A stretch of DNA of 64,000 nucleotides from Candidatus Latescibacterota bacterium (GTDB lineage: Bacteria > Krumholzibacteriota > Krumholzibacteriia > G020349025): the NCBI GenBank assembly GCA_020349025.1, contig CP070763.1, positions 1,158,753 through 1,222,752 on the forward strand. Direction: 5' to 3'. The notes under the pieces were generated by a model. It worked only from the letters and a program-made list of their open reading frames with translations, was not told the origin of the DNA and made no database searches. Each line of letters begins with the position of its first letter. Position 1 is the stretch's first letter. Positions 4,277 to 12,154 of the stretch are shown here, piece after piece. The position numbers and the translations under genes are program-made.

Positions 4277-5476
4277 TCAGGGTGCGGCTCGTTCCTCGTG
4301 GCCGACGCCTGGCAGCGACTCGAGCTGCGATCGCGGCGCTCCGGGGAAAACCGATACGGGCAGCAACAGCGGCACCCACGGATCGGCGGCAGCGGAAGCG
4401 GTGAGGTTGGCGTACTCCTGCCAGCGCGCGCGGAGGTCGGTCCGAATGCGCAGCGCTTGCTCCCTCTTGCCGAGCGCGTCGTAGTAGTCGGCGACGTGGA
4501 GGCCATAGCTCGGACGCGCCGCGTCGAGGTGGGTGACCAGCAACCCGAGAGGGAGCGGTACGTAATGCAAGCCTGCCGCGTGCATGCTCTGGGCGTGGCG
4601 ATCGAGATCGTGCGCCAGAGAGCGGGGCTCGAAGGTCACGAAGAAGGTCACGAGCGCCGCCAGCACCGCGACGGCGAACCAATCACCGCGACGGTGCGTG
4701 CGCCGCCCGGCGCGATAGGTGGCCAGGCGCGCACCATCGAGGGCGTGCGTGATCCACATCAAAGATCCCACGATCGTCGCCGCAAACGCCGCAATGAAGA
4801 GCATCTCGAGCGCGCGCGGGGCGATGGCCCCCGAGCTCGTGAGCTGGTTGCACTTCCAAAGAAGCGGTGCCGTCACGACCATCGCGGCTGCGAGAAGCGT
4901 GAGCCCCGCGTTGCCGACGGCGATCGCCGCGCGACGCGGTGCGGCGCTGACGAGGAGTCCGGCACCGGGCGCCACGAGCCCGAGCAACCCCACGACCGCC
5001 GGGTTCTGCAGCCAGCTTGGCAGGCGCTCGGCGAAGAAACGTGCATCCCAACCGGTCAGGAAGACGCTGCGGCTCCACGCCGCGAACGTGACGCAGAACA
5101 GGAGCGCCGAGACCAGGAGCCACGGCAGGAGCGGCACGCGTCCAGCCGCGAGCCAGCCGGAGAGCACGGGCCACTTCCAGATCATGCCGACCCAGAGCGG
5201 CACACCCAGAAGCCCCAGCAGCGCCCAGACGATTTGCCGACGACCCGTCTGCGTGAGCACGGGCGCTGCCGGTCCGAGGGCGTACGTGAGCAGGAGAAGC
5301 ATGCGTGTCCGGTCCGGCACCGGACCCAGAACGTAATACCCCTCCTCGGTCGACGCCGTCGACTCGCTGGCATGCTCGGCGAAACGACGAGCGCGCTCCA
5401 ACGCCGCCGCACGCTCTGAGTCGCGTAACGACGAGCCGTCGACGTCGATGACCCATTCCTTCTTGCGACCGTGCAT
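4277..5476 (-). CDS. Uncharacterised multi-pass membrane protein (short soluble N-domain, about 7-8 TM, TPR-like C-terminal helices)
   Basis: Hydrophobic segments through the middle; GGAG before ATG 5476; no family recognised with confidence. Confidence 0.65.
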   Translation of the reverse strand: MHGRKKEWVIDVDGSSLRDSERAAALERARRFAEHASESTASTEEGYYVLGPVPDRTRMLLLLTYALGPAAPVLTQTGRRQIVWALLGLLGVPLWVGMIWKWPVLSGWLAAGRVPLLPWLLVSALLFCVTFAAWSRSVFLTGWDARFFAERLPSWLQNPAVVGLLGLVAPGAGLLVSAAPRRAAIAVGNAGLTLLAAAMVVTAPLLWKCNQLTSSGAIAPRALEMLFIAAFAATIVGSLMWITHALDGARLATYRAGRRTHRRGDWFAVAVLAALVTFFVTFEPRSLAHDLDRHAQSMHAAGLHYVPLPLGLLVTHLDAARPSYGLHVADYYDALGKREQALRIRTDLRARWQEYANLTASAAADPWVPLLLPVSVFPGAPRSQLESLPGVGHEERAAP

Positions 5477-5686
5477 GGCAAAGCTCCCGATCCGCGATGC
5501 GGTTTCCTGACGCCGCTCGGCGTGTGGCGTCTGTTTCCACCCTTCAAAGGCAATGCGCATGCCCGGGAGCAGAAGCCCTTCCCGTCCATCCTGAGGACGT
5601 CTTGCGACGTTCGCGGAACTTCATTTTGCGCTTTCTTCGCAGCGGGAATGCGAGACGCCGCGCAGGTCGGCGACGCAGCGGGGCGG

Positions 5687-8600
5687 CTAGGCGTGCCGCG
5701 CCTTTTCCGTGCTGGAGATCCCATCCATGAGGTCGAAGTGACCCGCCAGCACGAGTTGGATGCGACCCGTACGCCATCCGCGCACGCCGTCGCGCACGAG
5801 CGGGGATGGGGATTCGCGATAGCGACGAACCACCGCTTGCCGGCGCCCCTTCGCTTGCGCCAACGCCGCACGCGCTTGCGCGAGCAACGCGCCGCGCCGA
5901 TCGTCCCCCGGCACGCGCTCGGCGGGCTCGTCGGGCTGCGGGATGACGCGCACATGCGCCTGGTAGCGACGGAAGCCGCGACTCCCGGGCGCATCCGGCT
6001 CCTCGTAGACGTGGAGACCATCCTCGGCCGCCAGCAGCGAGTGCGCACCGTAACCAGACACCGCCAGGAGGAAACGATACGGGCTTCCCCCCTCGGAGCG
6101 CCCCGACTCTTCGAGCACGTCGAAGCGCATGCGTCGCTCACGCGCCCAGCTGCGGTACATGTCACCGAGCCGCAGAGCGAAGGCATCGCTCTGCGCGGGC
6201 GGAATCCCGGGGCCGCGCCCCGCCTCCAGGAGCAGGAAGGCCTCGCGCGGGCGATTGTGCGAGACGTCGTCGCACGCGGTCCGCAGCAGGTAGAGCTGTT
6301 GCGCCAGGCGGTGCACCAACTCCTTCGGGTACCTCTGTCGCCGGTGCTCCCCCTTCAGGCGCTGCAGCAACGAGCTGGAGCGCTGCACTCCGGCCTCGAT
6401 GCGGTCGAGATACTCCGCCTCCCCCAGAACGGCGAAGCGGCTGGGCGATTCCCAGAAATCGGCGCTCGACATCAGGTCGAACGACGCCTTCTTCGTCTCC
6501 TGCCACCGCGCACTCGACACGTGCCGGCTGAGCGACTCGACGTGCGATTGCAGCACGTCGATCTCGCCCGAGATCCCCTGCGGCAACAGCACGATCTCTT
6601 CGAGCCGCAGCTGCGCTTCGACCCCGGGCAGGACGACGTCGGGAGTCGGCTCCTCCACCGCGACCTCTTCGCTCTCCGGGCCGGGCAGTGCATCCGGATC
6701 GACGAACTTGACCTCGAGCTGCGTCGCATCCGTGGTCACGAAGAGGAACTGGTCTCCTTGCGGAGCCTGGTGATTGACGATCGTCATCGCCAGTGGTGCG
6801 AGCAGGTAACGCTCGATGGCGCGTTTCAGCGGTCGCGCACCGAGATCCGACGTGAACCCCTTCTCGAGCAGGAAGTCGACGGCTGCGGGCTCCCATTCAA
6901 CCGCCCAGCCGCGATTGCGCAAGCCTCGACGCTCGAAGACGGCTTCGAGCTCGCGCACCAGGATCTCGCGCATCGTCTCGCGCGCCAGCGGCTGGAAGAT
7001 GACGATGCGGTCGATGCGGTTGACGAACTCGCGACGGAAGGCCTTGTCGATGGCGCGCCGCACGATCTCCGGCCGGAAGCCTTCACGAGCACGGGAAAAC
7101 CCCAGGCTGGTGCCGGTGGGAACGAGGCCGCCGAGGTTCGACGTGAGGATGATCGTGGCCTGGCGGAAGTCCGCGAGGTTGCCGCGCCGATCGGTGAGGC
7201 GTCCATCGTCGAACACCTGCAGGAAGAGATCCCAGACGCTCGGGTGCGCCTTCTCGAACTCGTCCAACAACACGACGGAGAAAGGTTGCCTGCGAATCGC
7301 GTCGACGAAGGTGCCATCCGACGCCTCGCTGGCCTGCGCCGGACCCAGGATACGGTCCAACGACTCCGGCGTCTGGAACTCGCTCATGTCGAGACGGATC
7401 ATGCGGTCCGGCGAGCCGAAGAGGAAATCCGCGAGGCTCTTCGCGATCTCGGTCTTGCCCGTTCCCGTTGGACCGGCGAAGAGGAAGACGCCCGGCGGAC
7501 GCGAAGGATCGGTCACCCCCGCTTTGATCATCGCCACGCGCTCCACCAGGCACCCGATCGCTTCCGGTTGGTCGAGCACCTGGGTCTCGAAGTGACGCTG
7601 CAACGCGTGGAGGTCGAGCCTCTCGCGCTCGTCCAGAATGCTGGTCGGCAGACCGGTCAGCTTCGACAGCGACAGGACGAGATCGTTCTTGGTGATCGGG
7701 CCGGGCTCCTCCCCCATGCGCGCCGCCGCTCGCATGCGCTGCAGCGTCAGGCCGAGGAACTGAAGCAGGTTTCCGGGCGCGGCCTTGTCGCCGAGGTACT
7801 GCTGCACCAGCTGCCACGCCTCGCGAATCGTCTCCGGCGCGAAGACCCCGGGGCCATCCTCGCTTTGAGTGCGGGCCCAGTCCTCGGCGAGCGCGAGCGT
7901 GTCGCTGGCCGAAAGCGGCTGGATCCGACAGCTCTCGAGCGCGGTGACACAACCGGGCCGGATCTGGACGAGCCGGTCGTATGCGCCCGGCTGCGTCTTG
8001 CCGAGGACGAGAAGCTCGCCGCGCTCGATGAAGGGCAGAAGCGAGTCGAGCACGCTCGCCTGGCTGTACTGATGTCGGCCCGCCCACGCGAGATGATGAA
8101 AGTCCGGGATCAGCCAGACGATGCGCTTGCGCCCGCAAAGCTGTTGCAGCAGCTTACGCACACGCTCTTCCAGCTCCCCGATGTACTTCTGCCCTGCAAT
8201 GAGCTCGGAGCCACCCGCCTCGAAGACCTCCCACCCCTCCGAGAGCAGACGGTTCAACAGCTTCCAAGCGACCGCGCCTTTGCCGACACCCGCCTCACCA
8301 ATGAGCAGGGCGGAGCGCGGCTTCTCGGCCGCGAGGATGGCGTAGAGCTCGTGAACGCGCGCCTCGAGCTCCGCGTGCGAGATCACGCGGCCATCGGCAT
8401 ACGGCTCCTCCTTGCGCCACAACTTGCCGACGCTCTGCAGGTACTCCCGATCGATACGACTGTACTTCTGCTCTTCCAGCGCCTTGCTCAGGATGGACAG
8501 ACCAGGCTCCGACAAGCGCTCCAGCATCTTCTTGAGATGCTCCACCTCCGACTCGTCGAGGCGCGCCACGTTGTCCCCAAGAATCGGCTGCTCACCCGCC

Positions 8601-9142
8601 TCGAGACGTTTGCGCACGAAGTTGCGCAACGAATCGACCGCGACGGCGGAGTCGAGCCATGCGGGGTGCCGCCGCTCCGCGATGTCGACGAGGACGTCGC
8701 CGATCAGTGGACGCGTGGCCGGCCAGTGCGCCAGGAGCACGCGCATGAGAAAGTACTGCTGGAACGGATTGGAGGGCCCCACCCAGGTGACGATCTCTTC
8801 GGGAAGGGGCTCGAGCGTGCGATTGACCAGCGCCTCGAGAGCCATGTAGGCAATGGCGTCATTCGTGCCACCGGCGTACTGGAGCACTTCCTCCGTCGTG
8901 TACGCGCGCCCGGACAGCATGGAAACGCCGCGGGCGAAGTGGGGATCCTCGGTCAGGTCGCCCGGGTGGGCGACGTCGTAGTTGACGTTGCGCGCGAGCT
9001 CGTAGAGTTGGGTGCCGGTCGCCGGCCCTTCGCTGGGCGGCGTTGCGGGCTCGGGAGTGGCGCGGCCGCGAAACGCCAGGCGCAGGATGGACGCGACGAC
9101 GACCCCCAAGATCACAGCAAGGATCAGGCCCCAGTCTCCCAT
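5687..9142 (-). CDS. Membrane-anchored Clp-type double AAA+ ATPase fused to a release-factor (PCRF)-like C-terminal module
   Basis: N-terminal TM; D1 'GEAGVGKG' and 'AGQKYIGELEER'; D2 'GPTGTGKT', 'RLDMSEF', 'VVLLDEFEKAHP', 'FDDGRLTD', 'FRREFVNRID', 'GARPLKRAIE'. C-terminal ~300 aa resembles RF1/RF2. ATG 9142 has a GGAG SD (track start TTG 9154). Confidence 0.88.
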   Translation of the reverse strand: MGDWGLILAVILGVVVASILRLAFRGRATPEPATPPSEGPATGTQLYELARNVNYDVAHPGDLTEDPHFARGVSMLSGRAYTTEEVLQYAGGTNDAIAYMALEALVNRTLEPLPEEIVTWVGPSNPFQQYFLMRVLLAHWPATRPLIGDVLVDIAERRHPAWLDSAVAVDSLRNFVRKRLEAGEQPILGDNVARLDESEVEHLKKMLERLSEPGLSILSKALEEQKYSRIDREYLQSVGKLWRKEEPYADGRVISHAELEARVHELYAILAAEKPRSALLIGEAGVGKGAVAWKLLNRLLSEGWEVFEAGGSELIAGQKYIGELEERVRKLLQQLCGRKRIVWLIPDFHHLAWAGRHQYSQASVLDSLLPFIERGELLVLGKTQPGAYDRLVQIRPGCVTALESCRIQPLSASDTLALAEDWARTQSEDGPGVFAPETIREAWQLVQQYLGDKAAPGNLLQFLGLTLQRMRAAARMGEEPGPITKNDLVLSLSKLTGLPTSILDERERLDLHALQRHFETQVLDQPEAIGCLVERVAMIKAGVTDPSRPPGVFLFAGPTGTGKTEIAKSLADFLFGSPDRMIRLDMSEFQTPESLDRILGPAQASEASDGTFVDAIRRQPFSVVLLDEFEKAHPSVWDLFLQVFDDGRLTDRRGNLADFRQATIILTSNLGGLVPTGTSLGFSRAREGFRPEIVRRAIDKAFRREFVNRIDRIVIFQPLARETMREILVRELEAVFERRGLRNRGWAVEWEPAAVDFLLEKGFTSDLGARPLKRAIERYLLAPLAMTIVNHQAPQGDQFLFVTTDATQLEVKFVDPDALPGPESEEVAVEEPTPDVVLPGVEAQLRLEEIVLLPQGISGEIDVLQSHVESLSRHVSSARWQETKKASFDLMSSADFWESPSRFAVLGEAEYLDRIEAGVQRSSSLLQRLKGEHRRQRYPKELVHRLAQQLYLLRTACDDVSHNRPREAFLLLEAGRGPGIPPAQSDAFALRLGDMYRSWARERRMRFDVLEESGRSEGGSPYRFLLAVSGYGAHSLLAAEDGLHVYEEPDAPGSRGFRRYQAHVRVIPQPDEPAERVPGDDRRGALLAQARAALAQAKGRRQAVVRRYRESPSPLVRDGVRGWRTGRIQLVLAGHFDLMDGISSTEKARHA

Positions 9143-9170
9143 CAGCGACTCCAATGTCGCGGCTCACCGT

Positions 9171-9199: not shown

Positions 9200-12073
9200 C
9201 TAGCGCGAAACGATCAGCTTGTGCGTTTCGACGCGCTGGCCTGCAGCGAAGCGGTAGAAGTACATGCCGGATGCGAGCCGCACGCCACGGTCGGTCCTGC
9301 CGTCGAAGGGCACGATGTGCGTGCCGGGAGCGAAGCGACGCGCCGCGAGATGCCGCACCGGACGACCGGTGACGTCGTAGATGACGATCTCGATCGGGGT
9401 CTCCCTGTCGAGCCGGAAGAAGATCTGCGTTTTCAAGCCGAACGGATTCGGTGACACCCAGGTTCGTTCGCCGCGGGCGATCGCACCCGCGAGAGCATCC
9501 GTCGGGTTCGGGTCGACGGTCACCGCATCTGTCGCCACGAGCGTGTCGTCACCGCACGCGTTCGCCGTGACCAGCGTCACGGTGTAGGTCCCCTCCGCGG
9601 TGTACGTGTGCGTGGGATTCTGCTCCGTCGACGAGTTGCCGTCGCCGAAGTCCCAGACCCATGCGGATGGATTGTTCGTGGATTCGTCCGTGAACACGAC
9701 CTCGAGGTCGGCAGCACCCGATGTCGGCGCGGCGCTGAACGCCGAGGTGGGGGAGGTCCCCACCGTGATCAGGGCCGGCGCCAGCATCGTATCGCTGCAG
9801 GCGCCGCTCGCTGCGACGAGCATCACGTCGTAGGTGCCGGGGCTGGCGTAATCGTGTGCCGGGTGCTGCTCCGTGGACGTCGCGCCGTCGCCGAAGTCCC
9901 ACGCCCACGTGTCGACGCCCGTCCCGGTCGAGAGATCGGTGAAGCTGACGCTCAGAGACGCGCATCCGGAATCGGGCGCTGCCGAGAATGCCGCGACGAT
10001 GTCGCAGGGCGCAGGCGAGGCCACGACGAGATCCGGCTGGATCAACGTGTCCGCCCCGCACGCGTTCGTTGCCACCAGCCGGACCGTGTAGGTCCCCGCC
10101 GTCGCATAGGTGTGCGTCGGGTTCTGCGCGAAGGAGGTGTTGCCGTCGCCAAAGTCCCACTCCCAGGTCGTCGGGCTCCCCAGGGTGGAATCCGTGAAGG
10201 CGACCAGAAGCGGCACCGGCCCCGTCGTCGGCGTGGCGCCGAAGGCCGCGCTCGGAGTGGTTTCGATGCTCACGAGCGCGGTCGACACCACGGTGTCGGC
10301 ACAGGCCGCGCTCGAGGCGATGAGCCTGACATCGTAGGTGCCCGGCGCGGCGTAGAAGTGCGTCGGGTTCTGCAGCGTCGACGTCGCGCCATCGCCGAAA
10401 TCCCACGCCCACGTGTCGATGCCGGTTCCCGACGACAGGTCGGTGAAGCCGACCGTCAACGTGTCGCAGCCCGATTGCGGCGAGGCCGAGAAGCCCGCGA
10501 CCACATCGCACGTCACACCGCACGCCGCTTCCAACGCCAACCGGGCGTTGGCGATGCCGGAGCCGAGATCCCGCGTGTCGGTGTAGGGCGTGGTGTTGTC
10601 CACGATGAGACTGAACTTTTCGGGTCCGGAGAGGCTCGGGTTGCACGACTCGAGGAGCGCGGCGATGCCGCAGATGTGCGGCGCCGACATCGAGGTGCCG
10701 CTCGACGCTGCGAGGTAATGGTGCGTGGGGTCGGGGTCGTCGGGGTTGCGATAGGTGCTGACGACCTCGGTGCCGGGCGCGGCAACGTCGGCGAACCCGT
10801 GGTTGGTGAAATCGGCGCCGACACCGAGCGTATCGGTGGCGGCCACGTTCATCACACCCGCCTTCCCGCCCAGATAGTCCGGGCTCGACGAGTCGCTGTT
10901 GCCGGCTGCGTGAACCACCATGACGTCACGCGCCAGCAGGGCGTCGACGGCCGCATCGATGCCACCCGAGTTGGACGATCCCCACGAGCAGTTGACCGCG
11001 GTGACGTTGACCCCGGCGTCGACCAGATCCGCGACGTAGTTCATCGCCTGCGCGGCCCAATCCATGCGCACGACCCCTGTGATCGTGAAGGGTTGGACCC
11101 GAGCATGGTAGCCAATGCGAAGCGGGAGGATCTTGACGCCGTTTCCGCTGCCGTTCGAGTTGCCGTCGCTGAATCCACCGGCAACTCCGGCACCGATGAG
11201 CGCATTGTTCGTGAGCGCGCCGACGGTCCCGGCGACGTGCGTGCCGTGTCCGTTGAAGTCGTCCGGGTCGTTGTCGATCTCGCCGCAATCGTCGTCGATA
11301 CAGGTGACCCCGGGGCCACCGGCCGACGAGACGAAGTCGTACCCGATCGTGTCGTCCACGAAGCCGTTCATGTCGTTGTCGGTCTGGTCGCCGGGGGTTT
11401 CGCCCGCATTGACCCAGACGTTGCTGCTGGTGACCGGGTTGTCCGGGCCCCAGATCCCGGCGCCGCCACCGCCGAGATCGATGTGGAAGTAGCGCACCCC
11501 GCTGTCGAGGATGGCGACGACGACATCGGTGCTGCCCGTTTCGATGTCCCACGCCAGGTCGGCATCGATCCCGAAGTCGTCCCAGAGATGCCACTGATCG
11601 AAGGGAAACTGCGGATTGGGCGAGTCCTGGAAGTAGGGGTCGTTCGGTGTTGCGCTCAGCGTATGGATCCCGATCTTTTCGACGCGCTCGACGTTGGGGT
11701 CGGAGGCGAACGCGGCAACCGCGGCCTCGAGGTCGGCATCCGCGGGCAGCTTCACTTTGTAGTGACCCGTCAGGTCCGGGTAGCCGGAGCCGGGCGCCTG
11801 CGCGCGTGCGGTCGGGAACTGCCTGTCGAGACGCTCGACGCCGTGCGCGCGCAGCAGCGCCTGGACGGAGGGGAGCGCCAGAGCGGGTGTGCTCGATCCG
11901 GGCTCGAGCGCCGCGCGGGCGCTGGCGCCAAAGACGACCACGAACTCGTCCTCGACCCATCCCAGGAACGCCGGCGCGGATTGCATCGGGACCCGGACTG
12001 CATACTGCGCAGCTGCGGGCGAAGCGAGCAAAAGCGGCAGGAGCAGCAAGGCTGCACAAGGACGGCTTGGCAT
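9200..12073 (-). CDS. Secreted S8 subtilase with four PKD domains and a C-terminal FlgD-Ig-like sorting domain
   Basis: Signal peptide; triad 'ILDSG', 'GHGTHVAG', 'GTSMSAPH'; four 'WDFGDG...NP.H.Y...GTY' units; tail 'SPNPF...IYDVTGRPVR...DGRTDRGVRLASGMYFYR'. Confidence 0.92.
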   Translation of the reverse strand: MPSRPCAALLLLPLLLASPAAAQYAVRVPMQSAPAFLGWVEDEFVVVFGASARAALEPGSSTPALALPSVQALLRAHGVERLDRQFPTARAQAPGSGYPDLTGHYKVKLPADADLEAAVAAFASDPNVERVEKIGIHTLSATPNDPYFQDSPNPQFPFDQWHLWDDFGIDADLAWDIETGSTDVVVAILDSGVRYFHIDLGGGGAGIWGPDNPVTSSNVWVNAGETPGDQTDNDMNGFVDDTIGYDFVSSAGGPGVTCIDDDCGEIDNDPDDFNGHGTHVAGTVGALTNNALIGAGVAGGFSDGNSNGSGNGVKILPLRIGYHARVQPFTITGVVRMDWAAQAMNYVADLVDAGVNVTAVNCSWGSSNSGGIDAAVDALLARDVMVVHAAGNSDSSSPDYLGGKAGVMNVAATDTLGVGADFTNHGFADVAAPGTEVVSTYRNPDDPDPTHHYLAASSGTSMSAPHICGIAALLESCNPSLSGPEKFSLIVDNTTPYTDTRDLGSGIANARLALEAACGVTCDVVAGFSASPQSGCDTLTVGFTDLSSGTGIDTWAWDFGDGATSTLQNPTHFYAAPGTYDVRLIASSAACADTVVSTALVSIETTPSAAFGATPTTGPVPLLVAFTDSTLGSPTTWEWDFGDGNTSFAQNPTHTYATAGTYTVRLVATNACGADTLIQPDLVVASPAPCDIVAAFSAAPDSGCASLSVSFTDLSTGTGVDTWAWDFGDGATSTEQHPAHDYASPGTYDVMLVAASGACSDTMLAPALITVGTSPTSAFSAAPTSGAADLEVVFTDESTNNPSAWVWDFGDGNSSTEQNPTHTYTAEGTYTVTLVTANACGDDTLVATDAVTVDPNPTDALAGAIARGERTWVSPNPFGLKTQIFFRLDRETPIEIVIYDVTGRPVRHLAARRFAPGTHIVPFDGRTDRGVRLASGMYFYRFAAGQRVETHKLIVSR
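9520..10515 (-). repeat. Four tandem PKD-domain repeats in A-B-A-B arrangement
   Basis: Repeats 1 and 3 share 'FTDLS.GTG.DTWAWDFGDGATST'; repeats 2 and 4 share 'W.WDFGDGN.S..QNPTHTY...GTYTV.LV..NACG.DTL'. Confidence 0.85.
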
Positions 12074-12154
12074 CGGTTCCCCCCGAAGGCCGCCACCTCG
12101 CGGGCGGCGTGAAGATGTGGCGTGCAGCACTCGAACGAAGCTGGTTCCAGGCGA

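Follow-up and report, generated by a model that had tools for sequence, protein, structure and literature searches.

The window analysed here is a stretch of 64,000 nucleotides (nt) from a Candidatus Latescibacterota genome (contig CP070763.1, positions 1,158,753 to 1,222,752), and we studied one gene on its minus strand, which encodes a Clp/Hsp100 protein with two AAA+ modules, D1 and D2. As read from the sequence the two rings of this protein divide the labour completely: D1 is predicted to grip the substrate without burning ATP and D2 to burn ATP without a gripping loop. The gene lies in an open reading frame at 5687..9154, which is open from a TTG at 9154 and closes with a stop codon at 5687-5689. 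Translation likely begins at the ATG at 9142, which has a GGAG 7 nt on its 5' side. The product of 1151 amino acids (aa) is identical to database protein P0002 and the gene is intact, with zero Ns and zero frame breaks. An initial annotation, made from the letters alone, had listed a series of motifs in this minus-strand reading frame; all of them are real and correctly placed, and each occurs exactly once. The features, in reading direction and in window coordinates, are the following (AF2: AlphaFold2; pLDDT: predicted local distance difference test; RF2: release factor 2).

5690..9142, minus strand: whole Clp gene, 1151 aa from ATG 9142 (open reading frame list and translation)
9071..9133, minus strand: N-terminal hydrophobic helix WGLILAVILGVVVASILRLAF, predicted transmembrane anchor, residues 4-24 (hydropathy, AF2)
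8429..9016, minus strand: all-helical HEAT-like repeat domain, residues 43-238, at the Clp_N position (AF2, profile search)
7703..8374, minus strand: D1 AAA+ module, about residues 257-480 (Pfam AAA at 283-380)
8276..8299, minus strand: D1 Walker A GEAGVGKG, Gly at the Mg-binding Thr/Ser site, last codon GGC
8174..8197, minus strand: D1 pore-1 loop AGQKYIGE, aromatic residue (Tyr) kept (GQKYIGELEER at 8162-8194)
8096..8116, minus strand: D1 Walker B WLIPDFH, Phe at the catalytic Glu site
6698..7690, minus strand: D2 AAA+ module and D2-small domain, about residues 485-815 (Pfam AAA_2, ClpB_D2-small)
7451..7474, minus strand: D2 Walker A GPTGTGKT (translation)
7325..7351, minus strand: D2 pore-1 loop position ILGPAQASE(ASDG), GYVG missing (translation)
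7250..7276, minus strand: D2 Walker B VVLLDEFEK (translation)
7127..7150, minus strand: ILTSNLGG, 5' of LGF in reading direction (translation)
7097..7105, minus strand: LGF tripeptide in the loop after D2 sensor-1 (ClpP-docking loop position of ClpA/ClpC/ClpX)
6605..6697, minus strand: acidic flexible linker, about residues 816-846, from D2-small to the tail (pLDDT <50 at 820-843)
5690..6604, minus strand: RF2-like C-terminal tail, about residues 847-1151 (Pfam PCRF, PDB RF2 matches)

The domain matches identify the product as a Clp/Hsp100 protein of class I type with several departures from the usual plan. Pfam detected AAA (PF00004) at residues 283-380, AAA_2 (PF07724) at 553-716 (2.6e-41) and ClpB_D2-small (PF10431) at 723-802 (6.5e-15), so that the protein has the two AAA+ modules of class I, the second one of the AAA_2 type with its D2-small domain; the Clp_N repeat domain of that class had no Pfam match in the protein. 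In the tail we found a weak Pfam match to PCRF at 964-1048 (1.8e-6), and RF2 chains in the PDB matched the same region with E-values of 3e-4 to 6e-4. The NCBIfam models for ClpB, ClpA, ClpK, ClpG and ClpV all matched far under their cut-offs (ClpB, TIGR03346: 314 bits, cut-off 1232; ClpA: 292, cut-off 993) and none of the NCBIfam models is dedicated to the family of this gene. Neither of the two marks of ClpB/Hsp104, the M-domain and an equivalog score, was found for the protein.

The AF2 model has a mean pLDDT of 85 and consists of a helix at residues 4-24, a linker at 25-41 (pLDDT <50), an all-helical part at 43-238 (pLDDT ~90), the two AAA+ modules, a disordered acidic linker at ~820-843 and the tail. 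When the model was searched with Foldseek the best matches were ClpC, ClpB and ClpA chains with E-values of about 1e-33 and ClpC at the top. The hydrophobic helix that the initial annotation had placed instead of Clp_N is indeed found at the N-terminus, but it is followed by a domain of ~200 aa (43-238) that the annotation had missed. For this N-domain a single-sequence Pfam search returned nothing and the matches came from the profile search alone: a 25-member profile of residues 43-238 matched alpha-Rep HEAT-like proteins (E = 2.8e-5 and 6.2e-5) as well as the HEAT repeats of adaptin beta. HEAT_2 also matches the N-domain in two family members.

We then aligned the protein with ClpA, ClpB and ClpC, a check proposed in the initial annotation. 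In this four-way alignment the identity of D1 to the three proteins was 21-25%; for D2 the highest value was that of E. coli ClpB (41%), followed by the genome's own ClpC (39%) and E. coli ClpA (33%). The spacing from the lid motif of D1 to the conserved D2 box is 67 residues, compared to 123 in the own ClpC and more in ClpB; as the junction is as short as in ClpA, there is no M-domain. In the search of solved structures, ClpA was aligned in one stretch (query 269-803, ClpA 197-731), whereas the alignments to ClpB and ClpC break in two. A maximum likelihood tree of D2 modules (35 family members, 26 ClpB, 12 ClpC and E. coli ClpA, with ClpX as outgroup) recovered the family as a single clade (99/100) that has a long stem and lies outside both ClpB (86/94) and ClpC. 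As to a place of the family relative to ClpA, ClpB and ClpC, the tree supports only the monophyly of the family and no particular branching order among the groups.

The family is large. More than 150 cluster representatives (50% identity) match the protein over its full length, and a scan of one genome per species gave hundreds of loci; the named members come from Acidobacteriota, Planctomycetota, Calditrichota, Gemmatimonadota and others. All conservation counts below refer to an alignment of 233 full-length relatives with the genome's own ClpC as a ruler. The motif pattern was also observed at 66 further, more divergent genome loci with 37-50% identity, from Acidobacteriota, Planctomycetota, Alpha- and Gammaproteobacteria, Actinomycetota, Verrucomicrobiota and Bacteroidota. 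As it recurs in the 233 full-length relatives and in these 66 loci, the pattern is far beyond chance, and the architecture is conserved together with it. Cultured carriers include Lysobacter antibioticus, Lysobacter brunescens, Labrys okinawensis and Ulvibacterium marinum. Full-text literature searches returned no description of the family, and Clp is nowhere mentioned in the main survey that compares release-factor domains. We conclude that this is a distinct, widespread and apparently undescribed Clp/Hsp100 subfamily.

The first ring is degenerate throughout the family, though not in every respect that the initial annotation had listed. The Glu of the D1 Walker B motif is absent in all 233 members: the position is occupied by Phe in 175, Leu in 39 and Ile in 11 of them and never by Glu. 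The neighbouring Asp position is also variable (Asp in 102, Asn in 67, Glu in 17 and Arg in 13). The loss of the Walker A Thr/Ser, by contrast, is a trait at clade level. GK[T/S] is present in 221 of the 233 sequences and is replaced in only 12, by Gly in 2, Arg in 7, Lys in 2 and Ala in 1. The GKG form was also found in L015, a relative with 59% identity from another genus of the same family, and is hence a clade trait rather than a sequencing error or decay in one isolate. In many alphaproteobacterial members the D1 Walker A reads GxxRxGKT. These replacements suggest a relaxed constraint on Mg-ATP binding in D1. Where a competent class I D1 has GK[T/S] and hhhhDE, we find GKG and PDF in the present protein, and D1 is predicted to be unable to hydrolyse ATP.

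The pore loops show the opposite arrangement. The annotation had described the GYVG pore loop as lacking, which holds for D2 (no aromatic residue in 209 of 233 members) but overlooks D1, where the aromatic residue is kept in 222 of 233 (Tyr in 171, Phe in 48 and Trp in 3) and lines up with KYR, the corresponding loop in ClpA, ClpB and ClpC. The usual pair of aromatic pore-1 loops, KYR in D1 and GYVG in D2, is not present in the protein. The D2 loop is rich in Ser, Glu, Ala, Gly and Asp and varies in length from 6 to 18 residues; the AF2 model has it flexible with a pLDDT of ~62. The ATPase motifs of D2 are conserved: its Walker A and Walker B, described as intact before, are near-invariant in the 233 members, and together with sensor-1, Arg finger and sensor-2 they range from near-invariant to invariant. 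D2 is accordingly the predicted active motor of the protein. Decay specific to one isolate, which could have explained the odd motifs, was not seen, as the Walker B change, the altered D2 pore loop, the LGF loop and the transmembrane helix are all family-wide.

The tripeptide after D2 sensor-1 was conserved in a similar manner. Its Gly occurs in 231 and its Phe in 232 of the 233 members, with L, I, V or M before them in 219, and the flanks vary freely. In the alignment it coincides with GLGF in the ClpC of this genome, whose ClpX has an LGF as well. Counted by pattern, [LIVM]GF follows sensor-1 in 239 of 245 family members, at offset 8 in 214 of them. As a positive control, [LMV]GF was found at offset 9-10 in 11 of 11 ClpC-type proteins from relatives; as a negative control, [LIVM]G[FLI] within 22 residues after sensor-1 was found in 0 of 23 ClpB proteins of the same phylum. 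The claim that LGF stands at a ClpP-docking-like position is borne out by these counts. ClpP partners carry [LIV]-G-[FL] on a flexible loop that comes after sensor-1 in the ring next to ClpP, and a tripeptide of this kind is what we observe here after D2 sensor-1; in the AF2 model the LGF loop is an exposed flexible coil (pLDDT 62-65). Loops of the IGF type dock in the hydrophobic H-sites of ClpP (PMC9035409), and the LGF loop may do the same. The source genome, a single contig of 3.84 Mb, contains one ClpP that adjoins ClpX at 0.187 Mb, so a partner exists; ClpC is located at 2.885 Mb, HslU at 3.206 Mb, and the gene studied here about 1 Mb from clpP. ClpC, ClpX and HslU are the only Clp-type ATPases listed for the genome. 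No ClpB scored above the NCBIfam cut-off on the whole contig, and 24 of the 61 genomes of the phylum sample have one.

We also examined the N-terminal anchor. The hydrophobic run is 21 residues long, with an acidic N-terminal tip and RGR after it, and has a Kyte-Doolittle mean of 2.73 over 19 residues. With a cut-off of at least 1.6 on the same scale, an N-terminal hydrophobic 19-mer was detected in 187 of the 233 relatives (80%) with a median start at residue 3. The mean net charge in the family is +2 after the helix and -0.4 before it. Judged from hydropathy and charge, the helix looks like an N-out/C-in anchor, a topology that would leave the ATPase in the cytoplasm. A cleaved signal peptide was rejected in view of the length of the run, the charge distribution and the need for cytoplasmic ATP. 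The predicted membrane tether is widespread in this sense but not universal. The Bacteroidota members (L045, L056, L059, L064 and L090) are short forms of ~880 aa that start at a conserved FLxxxGRVW motif and have neither the membrane helix nor the HEAT-like domain; no separate N-domain gene was found within 10 kb of them. Since some members do without the anchor, tethering should not be essential for the core activity. For the protein of the window, a location at the membrane is predicted.

From these results we propose, with a probability of roughly 45%, that the protein is driven by D2, is mostly tethered to the membrane, docks on the housekeeping ClpP and translocates chains that are unfolded beforehand. 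The single N-terminal helix would hold the hexamer at the inner face of the membrane and the HEAT-like domain would top D1, where Clp_N sits in ClpA/B/C. D1 would act as a non-hydrolysing ring for assembly and gripping, in which the substrate-engaging aromatic pore loop is kept; most members probably still bind ATP for assembly, while the D1 of the GKG clade may not even bind it. D2 would be the only motor and should pull weakly, as its pore-1 loop is replaced by a short, variable, acidic loop. It retains the [LIV]-G-F loop that ClpA, ClpC and ClpX insert in the hydrophobic pockets of ClpP. The hexamer would dock on the single ClpP of the cell, an already-unfolded chain would be captured by the D1 loops, whole-protomer stepping would be driven by hydrolysis in D2, and the chain would run via a 'slippery' D2 channel into ClpP. 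Such a machine would translocate chains that are unfolded or nascent and would do poorly at unfolding stable domains, and the RF2-like tail would pick its target.

The proposed substrate class is suggested by analogy with engineered ClpA. When hydrolysis in ClpA D1 is inactivated, D2 still unfolds and translocates many substrates, and the D2-6A variant, in which the six D2 pore tyrosines are mutated, degrades an unfolded ssrA substrate together with ClpP in an ATP-dependent manner at a rate of at least that of the wild type; the same variant fails on folded substrates, and the D1 loops are needed for engagement (PMC8666677). Since ClpA mutants with the same two defects feed ClpP with unfolded and not with folded substrates, we would expect a translocase of unfolded chains here.

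We compared the protein with the closest known systems. ClpA of E. coli resembles the protein in its two stacked AAA+ modules without an M-domain, in the single-stretch alignment and in the hydrophobic tripeptide loop after D2 sensor-1. In ClpA most of the motor work is done by D2 while substrate is engaged by the loops of D1 (PMC8666677), as we predict for the family. Unlike ClpA, the family protein has no Clp_N and no ClpS-type neighbour, has lost the D1 Walker B Glu and the D2 GYVG, and adds the transmembrane anchor, the HEAT-like N-domain and the RF2-like tail; the identity to ClpA is 33% in D2 and 22% in D1. ClpC (the own copy, and the ClpC-ClpP structures of S. aureus and M. tuberculosis) has LGF at the same site of the D2 loop and 39% identity in D2, but differs by its Clp_N repeats, short M-domain, active D1 (DE) and GYVG, and the family falls outside ClpC in the D2 tree. 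ClpB/Hsp104 gives the top D2 sequence score (T. thermophilus ClpB, E = 7e-83; 41% identity for E. coli ClpB), whereas the family has no M-domain, carries a ClpP-type loop that is missing in 23 of 23 ClpB proteins and forms a separate clade. FtsH and Cdc48-Vms1 are functional analogies only, without any claim of homology: FtsH is a protease whose AAA+ ring is anchored in the membrane, though our chain has no protease domain, and the eukaryotic Cdc48-Vms1 combines an AAA+ motor with a release-factor-like module in ribosome quality control (PMC6514570), though the tail in our family is of the bacterial RF2 type.

Several observations weigh against the translocase proposed above. The two defects that the family naturally has together, a dead D1 and a D2 without its loop, were made singly and not combined in the engineered ClpA of that study (PMC8666677). 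In the family, moreover, the D2 loop is replaced outright and not point-mutated. The six tails of 300 aa each leave the hexamer on the face that ClpP would occupy; the linker of ~30 aa could make it possible for tails and ClpP to share that face. We know of no natural ClpP partner without an aromatic pore loop in D2. About 20% of members lack the anchor, as do the Bacteroidota short forms. Within the class the gene occurs in just 5 of 41 genomes, which points to a stand-alone accessory gene and suits an accessory function more than housekeeping. In 70 family loci, which cover 1.23 Mb, zero ClpP or ClpX genes were found at distances up to 10 kb, each neighbour family is limited to 5 of these loci at most, and seven contigs that were inspected have unrelated neighbours with no ClpP, ClpX or conserved neighbour among them. 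As clpA and clpC are usually unlinked from clpP too, the missing linkage is weak counter-evidence.

In a different explanation the protein works as a stand-alone remodeller without ClpP. D2 would then move the RF2-like tail or a substrate held by D1, for example to split or clear stalled ribosomes, and the invariant LGF loop would serve for contact with the tail of the protein itself, with the HEAT domain or with some other partner. The missing genomic link to ClpP in the 70 loci agrees with this, as do the D2 identities, which are marginally highest to ClpB (41% versus 39% for ClpC and 33% for ClpA), and a genome whose own complement has no ClpB above the NCBIfam cut-off; the lost pore aromatic in D2 argues against processive feeding of a protease. 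What such a remodeller does not explain is a hydrophobic tripeptide at the exact ClpC position in 239 of 245 members, with free flanks and with 0 of 23 ClpB proteins sharing it. The AF2 model leaves the loop as an exposed coil rather than packing it on another domain, and the M-domain for coupling to DnaK is missing. We regard the remodeller as somewhat unlikely. That the protein is a Clp relic, in decay or no longer an enzyme, and owes its odd motifs to a loss of function is scarcely credible. Plant SMAX1/D53 are pseudo-ATPases that offer a comparison, and a low-score PDB match to SMAX1, the catalytically dead D1 and the additional loss of the Walker A Thr in the GKG clade would suit a relic. 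Yet Walker A and B, sensor-1, Arg finger and sensor-2 of D2 are invariant or nearly so in the 233 members, the gene is intact, and the >150 clusters at 50% identity keep the full length.

The patchy distribution could also be that of an accessory conflict or stress module, e.g. an anti-phage or anti-ribotoxin system, which would sense damaged or hijacked ribosomes and stop or repair translation at the membrane. In addition to the 5 of 41 genomes, the neighbourhoods are varied: one locus has DruA and a transposase, and at L021:905-8504 the homolog P0073 is found directly downstream of a hen1-pnkp RNA-repair pair with AbiEii nearby. The release-factor homolog PrfH is known to pair with the RNA ligase RtcB, and the arrangement in L021 recalls that pairing. 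At L023:8458-10693 (Calditrichia) the genes after the homolog encode a PspF-like sigma-54 activator and PspA, which are part of the membrane-stress response. PADLOC reported DolB and PDC-M37B, but these matches cover only the generic AAA_2 region at residues 509-670. Most loci have ordinary metabolic neighbours with no recurring partner gene, and in many phyla the architecture holds at identities of 37-56%. On balance we find a conflict module decidedly improbable. Membership in the Dodola group through DolB/PDC-M37B was considered separately and rejected, as there was no full-length match and no conserved partner such as DolA.

The tail invites an extension of the ClpP-docking translocase, which we consider improbable: the protein might be a single-chain bacterial counterpart of Cdc48-Vms1. 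In this case the RF2 module of the membrane-anchored, ClpP-docking hexamer would find ribosomes stalled at the membrane, e.g. on a jammed translocon, D1 would grip the exposed nascent chain, which is already unfolded, and the grip-less D2 ring would feed it to ClpP. By rough geometry, with D1 facing the membrane, the level of D2-small and the tail would be ~12-15 nm above it, near the height of the factor-binding site of a translocon-bound ribosome. An action on ribosomes is conceivable.

Double-ring Clp/Hsp100 proteins are textbook models, and the roles of their rings were worked out by mutating ClpA, ClpB and Hsp104. The present family would be nature's extreme version of these experiments, with one ring that only binds and another that only burns ATP, kept across many phyla. 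If the LGF loop is functional, the family would be a membrane-tethered addition to the known ClpP partners (ClpA, ClpC, ClpE and ClpX), with unfolded chains as its speciality. The release-factor-like tail could, if this is true, make it the first bacterial AAA+ protease adaptor that is hard-wired to the ribosome. As cultured carriers exist, the predictions are directly testable.

Within the window, the gene downstream of the Clp gene (4277-5560, minus strand) starts 127 nt past its stop and codes for a hydrophobic, membrane-like protein of 427 aa with no Pfam match. The upstream gene (9200-12130, minus strand) ends 57 nt before the Clp gene. It encodes a subtilisin-type S8 peptidase of 976 aa with four PKD domains and a FlgD-Ig/Por_Secre_tail-like sorting domain at its C-terminus. 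In L021, P0073 is on the same strand as hen1 and pnkp with a gap of 69 nt. Lastly, Archangium gephyra contains two tandem paralogs of a sister family (L101:8168-16113). Their D2 loops read PLGIG and AVGIG, i.e. LGI and VGI instead of LGF, the D2 pore aromatic is missing, and the two may form a mixed hexamer.

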